64,000 bases of DNA. Source: a bacterium. Lineage in GTDB: Bacteria > Zhuqueibacterota > Zhuqueibacteria > Zhuqueibacterales > Zhuqueibacteraceae. The stretch covers positions 1 through 64,000 of the forward strand of contig JBIOXB010000063.1 in NCBI GenBank assembly GCA_044869275.1, written 5' to 3'. The position numbers were made by a program. This document shows, one piece after another, positions 9,001-21,000 of this stretch (positions are counted from its first letter, which is position 1; each line of letters starts with the position of its first letter).

Positions 9001-12000
9001 ACAGCACCATGATGAAGCTGGCAAAGGGAAATGAAATCTTCAGATGCAAATCCACCAGCCAGCGCTGCGGGTCGCTGCCATTGCTGGCCACTTCACGAAT
9101 GTAATTCTTGAGCTCGCGATACGACATCTCCTCCGGGTCCTTTTGCACTTTCACCAGCACTTCCGGCGTGAAAAAAAGATCGGTCAAAGCCAGCGTATCA
9201 AAAGGCACCGCCACCTCCCGGGCATTTTGAAAAGAGCGCCGGTAGCCCTTGATCGCCTGCCAATGATCATTTTGCCAGAGCAGCGCCGAGGCATCGAGCC
9301 GGCGCACGATGAATACCCCTTCGTATTCTTGAATGCTGGCGCGTTCCGCGGTTTTTTGCGCGGCATTGTAATGGCCGATAAAAACGCGGCGGCTGTGCAA
9401 ATGAGCTCCGGCCGCCGGCCGGAACCAATCCTGCTGCGCGCCCGCGTCGAGGTTTTCCTGCAAATATAAATTCGAGGCGCGCGAGGGCAGGTGGTGCGGC
9501 AGACGGTCGATATACTGATTTTTGATCTCCGCCTTGCGCTGGTTCGCAATCGGCACGATCCTCTCCGTGAAATACATCATGCCGAGGCTGAACAGAAAAC
9601 CCAGAATCAGCAGCGGCGCGAGGATGCGATACAGCGACAGGCCCGAGGCCTGCATCGCCGTGAGCTCGTTGTATTTGCTCAGCTGCCCGACGCTGAAGAG
9701 CGCGGCGAGCAGCATGCCGATGGGAAACATCAGCACGATGATGTAGGGCACGTAATAAAAAAAATAGCTCACGATCACCATGCCCGGCACTTGCCGGTCG
9801 ATATAATCCGAGAGCTTCTCGATGAGATCGACCACGACGAAAATGCTGGTGAAGGCGATCAGCGCAAACGCCAGGGTGAGCAGGAATTTTCGGCTGAGAT
9901 AGAGATCCAGTATGCGCATACGGCTTCCTGAAAGGCAATCCTGTAAAAGAATAGTATTCTTGCCCAGCGCCCGCCATTTCGCGGCCAATAATGGGCCAAG
10001 GCTTTGCGTCAATTCCGCGCGGCGGTGTCGCGGCGCGCGACCTTGCCTTTCTTTTGAATGGTTGGCGAGGAGGCAAACAGGCGCCGCAGCTTTTGCAGCA
10101 AGCCGGCAAGGCTCATGCCGGTTTGATCGTGCGCTGCACGCCAAAGAAAAAACAAACCCGCCGTGCCCACCACGAGGTTTGCCGACCACATGGCCACAAA
10201 GGGCGGAATAATTCGGCGGTCAGCCAAGTCTTCCCCTCCCACCAAAAACGTCCAATACATCAAAAAAAAGACCAGACTGATGCCGCCGCCGGTGGCCAGG
10301 CCGCCGCGACGCGACATCACGCCCAACGGCGCGCCAATGAGCACGAACACCAGGCAGGCGACGGGAATCGAATATTTTTTCTCGATCTCGACCATCAGCC
10401 CCTTGCTCTTCGTTTCAAACCCTTCCAGGAGGCTGGCTTCGCGTTCCACCTGATTCAAAAGCTGGCGGTGCAATTGCAGCTTTTCCGCCAGCGGCGAAAC
10501 CGGCGCGCCATTCAAGGGTGGCGGCGCGGCCAAGTCGAGCGCTGGCGCGTACTGTTCACGCGCGCGTGGCGGGGATTGCGATTTCGGACGTGCGCCGGCA
10601 CTGGTCCTGGGCGGTTTCAACACCGGTACGGTGGGCACGAGCGCGGAATCCCGCGGCAGCCCCAGCAGCATGTTGAGGCCGGCGGGCAAATTGACCGACA
10701 AAGCGGTATTGATGCGCGCGCGCACTTGCGCGATTTCCTTCTCATGGTTGGCCACGTCTTCTCGCATCTGCTGCGCGCTTTTTTCACGGTCGCCGCGATA
10801 TTCCGAGGCGCTGCGGTTCAAGAACATATCGTCGACGACGACCGAGATCACATGCTTGGGAAAAGTGACGCGCCGGAATTCGTTCGGCTTTTGCATGTCG
10901 ATTTCCTGCATCTCGCCGTCGTGCAGCGTGAGCACCAGCGCGGCGTGGCTGGCGTCCATGCCGATCGTGCCGCGTCGCGCTGAAATCACCCGGCTGAGCG
11001 TGGGGCTGTTGTAATCGTTGATCAACAAATTCCGCGCTTTGGTGACATTGGCGCTATCTTCTAATTCTTGCACCAGCAGGCCGTAATTGGGAATATCGTC
11101 GTACCATACCCCCGGCTCGATGTTGATCGTCGGCCGCTTGCGTGCGATGTCACTCGCCAGCAGGCGCGTGCGGTGATTGAAATCCGGCAGAACATTGTTG
11201 TTAAACCAAACCAGGCCCGCCGCGAGCAGGGCCGAAGCCACCGCCACCGGCGCAATAATGGCGAAAATGCTGACGCCGTTCGCTTCCATCGCCGCAATTT
11301 CGTTGTCTGCCGCCATGCGGCCAAAGGCCATGAGCGTGGCGGTTAAGACCGCCATGGGCACGGACAGCGCGATCATCCAGGCCATATTCAAAATAAAAAA
11401 CTCCAGCACCACGTTCCACGGCAGGCCTTTGCTCAGAATACGGCTCAATTCCCGGAACAGCATGTTCAGCAGGAACAGCAGCGTGATGGTGAAGAAAGCG
11501 AAGAAGAACGGCCCGATGTGCTGGCGGATGATGTAACGCGAGAGAATGAAAGTCTTCATGTGCATGTCAAAAGAGGCAACGGATTATCACCATGCCGAAA
11601 ACTACAATCCATACTGGTTGGCGTCGCTTCTGTTGCTCATACAATATAGCAATCTCACCTTCCGCATGCTATGAAAATTTAATGGAGCCAACATTCGACT
11701 GGAACCGAAGTTACATGCTGAGCGTTTAGGCTATTGTCCCATCTCAGGATGCCGACTTTTTGCTTGATTCTAACACGTTTGATCTTTATTTTGCAACGCT
11801 TTAATTCATCCCGCATCCTTCACTCAAAAAACGAGGCGCTTATCGCACGATTTGCTACTGGTTTTTGATGCCAGAGTCGGTTCTTTTTGCCGGCAGAGAA
11901 TTCAAATCAGGAAGATGGCCGGAAAGAATCGCAACCATGAGAGCAAAAAACGAGTACTAATGTTGAGTAAGCGACAAGAACGAAAGGCCGTGACCCGAGT

Positions 12001-18000: not shown

Positions 18001-21000
18001 CCCGCTGATACGCTTGAATATCAACTGGAAAAACGGCATGGTCACCACCGCGCAGTACAACCAAGCCAGCGGCTACCGGCCCACCTATAACCCCATCGGC
18101 CAACTGGACGAAGAAGGGTTTCTCGACACCTTCCAAAGCGCGGCGTTCAGCCGCACCAACGATCTCTCGTTCACGCATACCTATTCCAAACGCTCGGGCT
18201 TTCGCATACCGCTGCCGTTTCTCAGAAACAAAGAGCTGAAAAACAGCGTCGATCTCAGCATCAATTACACGCGCAGCCTCACCGAGAGCAGCGCCAAATA
18301 CAGCCGGGATTCGCAGGAAGTGGTAAACAACTCCACCGCGCGCTGGGAATTCAGCCCGCGCGTCACCTACACCTTCAGCAACCGCGTCCGGGGCGGCGCA
18401 CATTTTCTGTATGGCAAGACCGAAAGCCGCCTGATTGGCAAGACCACCATCACCGAGCTTGGCATCGACGTGAACATTTCGATTCGCGGGCAGTAGAGGA
18501 TGATATGACCGTTTTCTTGGCTGAGGCTCCATTCGCATAAACTACCGGCGTCACGCCCTCTTTGTTTTTCAGGCACATGCCTGAGCGCGGAATGACAAAC
18601 ACACCTCAGCGCCGGGCTATTGTGGGGTGCCGTATAACCATGAGTTCCAGACCAATGAGATCTTGTATCTCAAACAACTGGAGAAGCACAATGAAAGGCA
18701 TGATGTGGTGTGCAATCGTTTCGAGTACTCTGGTGCTGACTCTCTCATGCCGGCCAGAGTTGCAAGAAGCGAGATTCTCGAGCTTCCCACAGTCCAAACT
18801 TGATGCGGTCAACTTCTTAATCGGCGACCTGAGTTTTGTTGCAAAGTACGGGACACTGCCAGACAAAGAGGTTGACGAGAAACTAAGAATCTCGGTCCAC
18901 TTGGAGTTCGTTGAAAACTTATTGCGCGAAAAGGCGTCTGGCCATTTAAGCCCCCTTCAAAGAAAAGCGAGATGGCAGAATATCGATCGCTTGCAAGAGT
19001 ATCGGCGGAACGGGATTTTTCCCCGGAATTATGATTATCCGAGCCGAAGGAAACCTTGTTTTATTGATAAATATGGCAGGATTTGTGCCGTGGGCCATCT
19101 CATTGAAAAAACCGTAAATAGAAAATTTGCCGAGGAACATAATGCCCGATTTCAGTATCAGACCATTTTTGAGATGCAGTCTGTAGAACTGGAAGGGTGG
19201 ATTTCTCAAAGTGGCCTGAGCAGAGATGAACTCGCCATGATTCAACCGACTTATGGATTCGAAGAAGAAAATGGCAAAGACAAAATCTCAAAGGAAGTGG
19301 AAGCCGTAGGCCTAGCTCTTACTGGTTCATCCGTCTTAATTAATAGCATATACATAGGCCAGCAGAAAAAGCATTTGCTCGCGGGATCCTTGGGCCTCTT
19401 GCTCGGCACCACGAGTCTTGCCACGGGATTGTCAGATAAATCCAATTACAGTGTTCCCGATATCGCATTGGGGACTGCAGCAATAGTGACGGGGATTTTG
19501 AATTTGTCTTTGGGGAGGAAAGAAAACAAAAGCTCGAACCACCGAGAGCCCATGCCTCAAAAAGCTCAAATCGGCCTTGGGATGATACCGGTAGAAAATC
19601 GATTCGGTGTGGGATTAAGCATGAGATAGATTCTTTGATTTGAACTTGGGCGTGATTCCAAACATCGTCAAATTAGTGCGACCCAATCAAACACTCATAT
19701 TGCATGCCCCGCGTTAAAAAGAAGAAAAAACACCCTCATTCACGGCACCCGCGCGCAACGACGGAAAAGGCCCGGTCGTCATTTCCAACCAGGATCTGGT
19801 TGATGGTCGGCCTCGGTGTGCTTGCGGCTGTGGCCATTTTGTTACTGTGGAAAAATTGGTCCGCAACAAAATTTGCCATACCCTCTTTCAATGGTGAAAA
19901 CGCTTTTGCCCTTTTGCAAAAGCAATGCGATTACGGCCCGCGCGTACCGGGCACGGCCGCCCATGACAGTTGCCGCGTTTTCTTAGTGAACGAGCTGAGC
20001 AAATATGCCGACAACGCCGTTGAGCAAAGCTTCGAGCATCAATTCGAGCGCTATCCGCAGCCGGTGAAATTGACCAATATCGTCGCCGGTTTTCAACTGC
20101 AGGCACCTCGCCGTGTGCTGCTGTGCGCGCATTGGGATTCGCGGCCCTGGGCAGATCAAGAAAACGATTCTTCCAAACATGACGACCCCGTTCTGGGCGC
20201 GAACGACGGCGCCTCGGGCGTGGCGGTGCTGCTGGAGATCGCACGCGCATTGAAAGCCTCGCCGCCGCCCGTCGGCGTTGATCTGGTTTTATTCGACGGC
20301 GAAGACAGCGGCACAAGCGGCGTACCGCGCTCGTTCGCCATCGGCTCACAACATTTTGCCCGCACGCAGGGCGCCCAATATCGGCCGCTGTTCGGCATTC
20401 TATTGGACATGGTCGGCGACCGCGATTTGCAGATTTATCAAGAAGCCAATTCCGCGCGCTATGCGCGCGGCCTCGTTGACCGCGTCTGGCAGCTCGCACG
20501 CGAGCAGCAGGTGCAAGAGCTCATTCCCACCGTGCGCCATGAAGTCTTCGACGATCACTATCCGCTGATCGAAGCCGGCATCCCGGTGATCGATCTCATC
20601 GATTTCGATTATCCGCATTGGCACACGCTCAACGACCTCCCGGAACAATGCAGTCCCGCCAGTTTGGAAAAAGTCGGAAAAGTCGTGCTTGCCGCGATTT
20701 ATGATCACCGCGCCTGGTGAAGCCTTTCCTGCAAAGCATTCACGAAAAATCGTTTGAATCCCGCCGCGGAAGATGCTAAATTGCCGCGCATGAGAATGAT
20801 CCCGGAACCAAGGTTGTGAAGCCCTTCACAAAGATATTGGTGTTGGGCGCATGCTGGGCGACCGCGGCCGCGGCCCAAGGCCTATCCTTGGAAATCGACT
20901 CTTTGCGCGTGGAGGCTGGCTATTTGCGCGCCGATTTTCACGCCGACAGCCTGCTGACCATGCGCCTGCTTGCAAATATGCGCCGGGGAGTCACCTCCTC

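Follow-up and report, generated by a model that had tools for sequence, protein, structure and literature searches.

A type IX-type export system without detectable Gld motor genes in Zhuqueibacterota, and its possible energisation by a TonB-type stator

In current models of type IX secretion (T9SS), the GldLM motor and the GldKN track are essential for export. Loading of the cargo needs no energy while its release does (PMC10994853, Discussion), and it has been proposed that type IX secretion arose from the gliding machinery (PMC12635249, Discussion). A motorless pattern is already in print and so is not wholly unreported: one Results sentence of PMC11705866 states that Melioribacter and Ignavibacterium have SprA and PorV and that other T9SS proteins were not found by BLAST. 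That statement covers two genera of Ignavibacteria and offers no mechanism.

Here we describe a locus from G000, a genome of the phylum KSB1 (Zhuqueibacterota); the window is the whole stretch of 64,000 nucleotides that was analysed. We propose, with a probability of roughly 0.4, that a type IX-type export system works in this organism without the Gld energy chain and is driven by a TonB-type stator. The first half of this proposal, a chain that is truly absent and a system that is working, is highly probable; given that, we rate the odds of TonB-type power as even.

The sprA locus and the other parts of the system

The sprA/sov gene for the outer-membrane translocon is an intact ORF of 2,178 aa at 11960..18496 on the forward strand. 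It scores 876.9 bits against TIGR04189 (SprA, cut-off 200), its only PDB sequence matches are SprA from F. johnsoniae (E 1e-188), and four SprA entries are the only fold matches at E<=0.001 of a structure model of residues 1-1100 (pLDDT 61). These results bear out the first-pass annotation of this gene. The start at 11960 is preferred over a TTG at 11852 because the alignment with the closest relative begins at residue 1 (81%). SprA is present in 120 of the 121 genomes of the phylum that were surveyed.

Upstream, sprA is divergently transcribed from a gene for an lptF-like LPS export permease (10009..11565, reverse strand; TIGR04407 180 bits, under the cut-off of 230), which adjoins sprA in 88 of the 107 loci inspected in relatives. 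An lptG-like LPS export permease gene (8789..9919, reverse strand, start from the gene caller; TIGR04408 236 bits, cut-off 240) occurs at 77 of these loci. The alpha-amylase-family protein encoded at 5975..8779 (forward strand; PF00128, PF13860, PF18962) has a C-terminal T9SS sorting domain and, judged from its domains, is likely T9SS cargo.

Straight after sprA, the usual gene in the phylum codes for an M28-family peptidase (55 of 107 loci, many of which have no downstream flank). Its copy in the window (19704..20720, forward strand; PF04389 118 bits) may act as a glutaminyl cyclase. It is separated from sprA by an insertion, a single-copy orphan ORF (18562..19629, forward strand) with a GC content of 46.6% (genome 54.8%) that matches no NCBIfam or Pfam family and is missing from the sprA locus of the closest relative. 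An exported Ig-like DUF4390 protein follows (20816..21493, forward strand; PF14334), and its gene is found downstream of sprA in several families (22 of 107 loci). Its model (pLDDT 83) is a generic beta-sandwich (best Z 10.1, rmsd 2.2, 94 residues aligned), and a fold search with this Ig-like model, considering DUF4390 as a stand-in Plug, returned no Plug among the top 50 matches.

Elsewhere in the genome, 20 PorV-family proteins exceed the NF033709 cut-off, the number of PorV/PorQ-like barrels counted before; six of them were also scanned with NF033710, the strict PorV model, and all fall short of it. The PorU sortase (849 bits, above cut-off, with GHG and ATC motifs), PorZ (266 bits, cut-off 260) and the regulators PorY (350.6 bits, cut-off 350) and PorX (56% identity to a protein scoring 717 bits) were likewise recovered as annotated. 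Earlier, about 190 proteins with a T9SS C-terminal domain (CTD) had been counted, which agrees with the 208 ORFs found by our own profile (E<=1e-4). The exception is the claim of two PorP/SprF proteins, as both candidates match only the PorV family, and weakly; among the candidates scanned, PorP/SprF and PorE gave weak, sub-cut-off matches only. An SprE-like protein, with SprE as top PDB match (E 4e-6) and 120 bits against a cut-off of 250, is found in 60 of 61 KSB1 genomes. G000 also encodes a PorD-like protein (over the Pfam cut-off; NCBIfam 74 bits, under the cut-off of 170) and a Skp-like partner. Since the genes are intact and 208 cargo ORFs exist, we argue that the system is probably functional.

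Search for motor, track, link and plug

The phylum survey comprised 121 genomes, 97 of them at least 90% complete and one (G052) closed. GldM exceeded its cut-off in none of the 121 (best E 0.026), and a deepened profile also found it in none (best E 0.005, for a protein that looks unrelated). In G000 the best GldM match, on contig C59 (E 0.019), turned out to be a regulator of the Rrf2 type. The best one in the phylum, in G051, seems to be an exported protein with no relation to GldM, encoded after a sigma/anti-sigma pair. A profile of the membrane part of GldL, which finds 39 of 151 genomes in a Bacteroidota sample, matched none of the 121 at E<0.01. GldN was found in none, bar one stop-ridden match; its profiles also miss the gene at the N position of the Cyclonatronum operon discussed below. 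All five named Bacteroidales that served as controls were detected. The reported absence of GldM from G000 and the phylum thus stands, and the failure to detect GldL and GldN, previously based on G000 and three relatives, now extends to 121 genomes and to deepened profiles.

GldK was analysed in G000 alone. A GC-LANFK stretch is common to all 17 canonical GldKs and occurs in none of the 11 FGE-sulfatase matches of this genome. A motif search of G000 revealed no vWA-OmpA gene. PorG has no match in G000 and sub-cut-off barrel matches in G052, the two KSB1 genomes searched (control 226 bits), and BLAST of PorG against the barrel domain from Cyclonatronum showed no similarity. Plug was over cut-off in none of 61 KSB1 genomes, and our own three-sequence profile reached a best E of 0.1 in G000. 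Profile NF052318 matched nowhere and is uninformative.

Motor genes might be missing from the G000 assembly (255 contigs, 94% complete), or the system might be defunct. We consider this highly improbable. The same pattern is seen in the 97 near-complete genomes and the closed one, and for this reason the absence of the motor is, at the level of sequence, real and not an assembly gap. The genes for SprA, PorU and cargo are intact, and passages in PMC6851124 and PMC6539836 report that CTDs are cleaved in Fibrobacter and that a CTD protein of Rhodothermus is attached to the cell, both organisms lying outside our named motor search.

The first-pass annotation had also considered a motor that has diverged beyond recognition. 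Cyclonatronum (G151) has a divergent motor operon with the rearranged order K-N-M-L, in which GldM reaches 36 bits (cut-off 180) and the N-position gene is detected by no GldN profile. Because this operon escapes the curated cut-offs, some probability must be left for motors that are not recognised, be they GldLM-like or merely analogous. However, profiles that were built without Cyclonatronum still detect its GldL (E 6.7e-6) and GldM (E 1.5e-6) and find nothing in G000, and profiles that include its motor proteins find nothing in the 121 KSB1 genomes. A topology screen for GldL among 4,827 called genes of G000 yielded 25 proteins, none GldL-like by eye. Together with the results for GldK and vWA-OmpA, the deepened profiles weaken this explanation, and we regard it as quite unlikely.

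The motorless state is not special to KSB1. The class-balanced GTDB sample of Bacteroidota (151 genomes) contains 120 SprA-positive genomes, 81 of which lack both GldL and GldM. In a SprA tree, all nine SprAs from motor-bearing genomes fall into a single clade (support 1.0), which is nested within the motorless ones; the tree has no outgroup, and under midpoint rooting the root falls elsewhere than on the KSB1 branch. Given these numbers and this nesting, the motorless state may be ancestral, a reading that relies on the species tree.

Candidate energisers of the export

Six ExbB loci were found in G000, instead of the seven ExbB/ExbD-type stator sets claimed before. In family f8, exbB adjoins sprA in all seven cases, and sprA-M28-exbB-exbD-tonB form an operon-like run (order read in five genomes). 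Of the 13 genomes of family f7, nine carry a second exbB/exbD/tonB set no more than 15 kb from sprA, and in G011 this second set comes after the PorV-like/HhH genes with priA in between. By a rough estimate, 0.7 families with such linkage are expected by chance, and two were seen.

There is no exbB on the sprA contig of G000, and inspection by eye of the SprA N-terminus revealed no evident conserved TonB-box-like motif. ExbB of the C35 type (at least 45% identity) occurs in 99 of 121 KSB1 genomes and in none from families f10 and f21. As C35-type TonB is found in only 5 of the 151 Bacteroidota-sample genomes, we rejected this TonB/ExbB/ExbD set as a general motor replacement. A conserved protein encoded divergently from the C35 operon gave no usable Atlas match. 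The f8-linked set was also rejected, having no clear orthologue in G000 or in most of the family to which G000 belongs. No stator set universal alongside SprA was found, and with 19 TonB-receptor-like genes in the genome the stators likely have other clients. We found no report of a TonB-ExbB-ExbD or Tol-type stator acting on SprA. The earlier suggestion that another inner-membrane machine powers SprA thus gains weak support from gene order in two families, and loses some from the lack of a universal set.

A third option, beyond the two of the first-pass annotation, is that no motor is used. The loaded carrier would leave SprA by itself, or be displaced by the next empty carrier, with receptor binding or sortase cleavage making the step one-way. 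We found no energiser that all motorless lineages share, as would be expected here, and 13 of the 20 PorV-family carriers directly follow a CTD gene (148 of 4,575 genes in general), with 8 of the 20 in receptor-cargo-carrier runs, as would suit dedicated carriers that stay bound. SprA is also shorter in KSB1 (2,040-2,180 aa) than in the motor-bearing clade (about 2,370-2,530 aa), and the failure to detect Plug in any of the 61 genomes would fit a channel that is occupied at all times. Against this, Plug occurs in two motorless genomes of the Bacteroidota sample, F. johnsoniae cargo is trapped when the motor is missing (PMC10994853), and most of the 208 cargo ORFs have no carrier gene of their own, so that carriers must recycle. 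We rate motorless release as rather unlikely.

In the model with TonB-type power, which we prefer, CTD cargo would load into SprA and onto the carrier without energy, and extraction of the carrier-cargo complex would be the sole step requiring force, as work on F. johnsoniae suggests. We propose that this force would be supplied by a general ExbB/ExbD stator via a TonB-like protein, not by a dedicated rotating track, and PorU and PorZ would serve surface attachment of the cargo. The Gld motor and track would have been gained later, in the line of the Bacteroidia. We slightly favour the broader view that SprA-carrier export is an ancient FCB trait that did without GldKLMN, using a TonB-type stator or no motor, before Bacteroidia acquired motor and track. 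If true, this reverses the proposal that secretion arose from gliding (PMC12635249).

Comparison with known systems

It appears that an entire phylum, along with two in three SprA-positive genomes from the Bacteroidota sample, manages without motor and track. The role of the motor thus becomes accessible to direct comparison of motor-bearing and motorless systems, and a simpler translocon is on offer for structural work or surface display. The finding is also relevant to the question of how many uncultured bacteria of the FCB group put enzymes on their cell surface.

The partial T9SS of Melioribacter and Ignavibacterium (PMC11705866) shares SprA and PorV with the KSB1 system; it differs in having Plug, which was not found in KSB1, whereas SprE, PorD, PorU and PorZ were found in KSB1. 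The TonB-ExbB-ExbD and Tol-type stators, with six loci in G000, are proton-driven and have an arm that spans the periplasm; they are tied to SprA here by gene order, in two families only. Compared with the T9SS of F. johnsoniae and P. gingivalis (PDB 6H3I, 8GL8; PMC10994853, PMC12635249), the GldL/GldM motor, the GldK/GldN track, the PorG link and Plug were not found, and SprA is shorter by about 300 residues. Shared with these systems are SprA, SprE- and PorD-like partners, Skp, PorV-family carriers, PorU, PorZ, PorX/PorY and CTD cargo, while the KSB1 genome differs in its 20 carrier paralogues, many of them paired with a cargo gene and a TonB-dependent receptor.

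The SprA translocon, its neighbours and its partners

On the forward strand at 11960-18496, the window carries sprA as an uninterrupted frame of 2,178 residues that scores 876.9 bits with the SprA/Sov model. The sole PDB match of a profile built from 19 relatives was F. johnsoniae SprA, and SprA structures were the only fold matches of a modest predicted model of its first 1,100 residues (pLDDT 61, pTM 0.38). The SprA/Sov translocon of the first-pass annotation is thereby borne out. Named relatives are KSB1/Zhuqueibacterota and Calditrichota records.

Divergent from sprA, lptF-lptG is located on the reverse strand at 8789-11565. 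Gene-order comparison found lptF at 88 and lptG at 77 of 107 relative sprA loci; the divergent pair occurs in most KSB1 and Calditrichota loci, and was not seen at the Rhodothermia-type, Ignavibacteria-type and Parabacteroides loci examined. The pairing suggests that LPS export and protein export are under shared control. The gene 3′ of sprA usually codes for an M28 peptidase, and in the window a single-copy orphan ORF of low GC (18562-19629) is inserted between the two. In KSB1 genome families f4, f5 and f7 (loci L293-L301), a PorU-like protein of 1,500-1,620 aa (PorU2-like) and a PorV2-like barrel are encoded within a few genes after sprA.

PorU (849 bits, with catalytic-type motifs), PorZ (266 bits), PorX, PorY and the PorV family (20 barrels over cut-off), all previously annotated in the source genome, were recovered; the two PorP/SprF proteins were not confirmed there. 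Our own CTD profile detected 208 CTD-bearing ORFs. A CTD gene lies directly upstream of 13 of the 20 PorV-family genes (background: 148 of 4,575), a count in which five of the 20 have a contig edge at most two genes upstream, and eight of the 20 complete a run of TonB receptor, cargo and carrier.

Additions to the earlier inventory are a SprE-like lipoprotein with SprE as top PDB match, a PorD-like protein, and Skp, adjoining a bamA-like gene, so that the source genome has putative counterparts of the periplasmic components that PMC10994853 describes for the extended translocon. The SprE-like protein occurs in 60 of 61 genomes of the phylum, with every score under the curated cut-off. In three distant genomes, porD is divergent from the genes for a small PorV-like barrel and a helix-hairpin-helix outer-membrane protein of 640-670 aa (L247:5443-9135, L249:5257-9071, L252:5225-9085); these two may be unrecognised T9SS parts.

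Parts not found in the phylum

Of 121 genomes from the phylum, 97 have a completeness of 90% or more (the tallies include the unpublished G088), and SprA was found in 120 of the 121. As had been claimed for the source genome, GldM, the membrane part of GldL (profile search) and GldN were each found in 0 of 121 genomes, the GldN searches being weak. GldM was also not found in the closed genome G052 and in four further genomes, of which three carry a Calditrichaceae or Caldithrix label, and was detected in all five Bacteroidales controls (456-575 bits). Plug was found in none of 61 genomes of the phylum; PorG gave no match in the source genome and weak matches in G052. A cysteine stretch common to all 17 canonical GldKs occurs in no FGE-sulfatase protein of the source genome, the one genome searched for it. 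On sequence grounds, type IX secretion here is a real, phylum-wide variant.

A motor that is present and unrecognisable is the third-ranked of three readings and unlikely. How far the searches reach is illustrated by G151 (Cyclonatronum, from the Bacteroidota sample), which has a GldM match at 36 bits and a rearranged operon of a barrel-GldK fusion, an N-position gene, a short GldM and GldL. Profiles from 23-24 canonical sequences recovered its GldL and GldM at E ~1e-6 and missed the N-position gene, which escaped every GldN profile used. Once enriched with the G151 proteins, the profiles gave nothing significant in the source genome or the 121 genomes, and these searches rule out divergence of the G151 degree for GldL and GldM of the phylum, leaving room for greater divergence.

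The GldK-like protein of G151 (L230:3830-8662, contig C186) has no cysteine at all, including the residue that links GldK to PorG. Its fused N-terminal outer-membrane barrel scores 0.95-0.96 to barrel clusters of the Atlas and has no BLAST similarity to PorG. If the fusion replaces the disulfide link, it would independently support the PorG-GldK model.

Energy for carrier-cargo extraction

In F. johnsoniae, energy is required solely at carrier-cargo extraction (PMC10994853) and is passed on by PorG, which is attached to the GldK track as this moves (PMC12635249). Here one whole block, made up of motor, track and PorG, is missing. We rank first, at a probability of about 0.4, that a TonB-type stator (ExbB/ExbD) would power this extraction. 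Family f8 has the gene order sprA-M28-exbB-exbD-tonB, and in family f7 a different exbB/exbD/tonB set lies close to sprA (9 of 13 genomes). Neither set is universal, the source genome has no sprA-exbB link, and sprA-linked families (2 of 23) are little over a rough chance estimate of 0.7. Release that needs no motor ranks second and is a doubtful alternative to TonB-type power.

The source genome has six ExbB loci rather than the seven ExbB/ExbD-type stator sets annotated before. One belongs to a conserved KSB1 unit (L286:5074-9407, contig C35) of cutA, a metallo-beta-lactamase-fold gene, a TonB-like protein with unusual motifs, exbB and exbD; in divergent orientation the unit also encodes a membrane-anchored protein that carries a BlaI-like domain. 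Two clusters of the order TPR-exbB-exbD-exbD-TonB-like (L260, contig C211; L261, contig C50) may resemble the myxobacterial Agl/Glt gene sets. A second conserved unit, not evident in the source genome, codes for a TPR protein of 1,000 aa, a 570-590 aa protein without Pfam family, ExbB, ExbD and TonB (L344:1856-8511, L345:2169-8762).

Motorless systems in Bacteroidota

Among 151 genomes evenly drawn from GTDB Bacteroidota, 120 have SprA and 39 have GldM plus GldL; all 39 are SprA-positive, which leaves 81 of the 120 motorless. Judging from two named members and the tree, the 38 canonical motor-bearing genomes probably belong to Bacteroidia. Several motor-bearing genomes (G235, G251, G207) have extra proteins of 210-240 aa that match only the C-terminal part of GldM.

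In a FastTree phylogeny of SprA (37 sequences, 1,660 columns, no outgroup), the nine motor-bearing SprAs form one clade (support 1.0). Its sister is a mostly motorless group that includes G151, followed by more motorless groups and then by KSB1 and Calditrichota. The midpoint falls off the KSB1 branch, while the species tree presumably points to that branch as the root. With this root, the tree suggests one or two motor gains as against several losses, and the motor is likely a late arrival.

Absence of the motor has been mentioned for other lineages. Rhodothermus and Salinibacter reportedly have sprA and lack gldKLMN (McBride and Zhu, 2013). For Melioribacter and Ignavibacterium, PMC11705866 lists PorV, SprA and Plug and no further T9SS protein. 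Our literature search, restricted to non-subscription papers and with most matches judged by their listing, turned up none that treats the motorless state in its own right; within the same coverage, none joins KSB1 with T9SS. Added here are how broad the absence is, the lack of Plug, and a motor that probably arrived late. Compared with canonical T9SS, the KSB1 variant would differ in motor, ring and PorG and otherwise appears T9SS-like.
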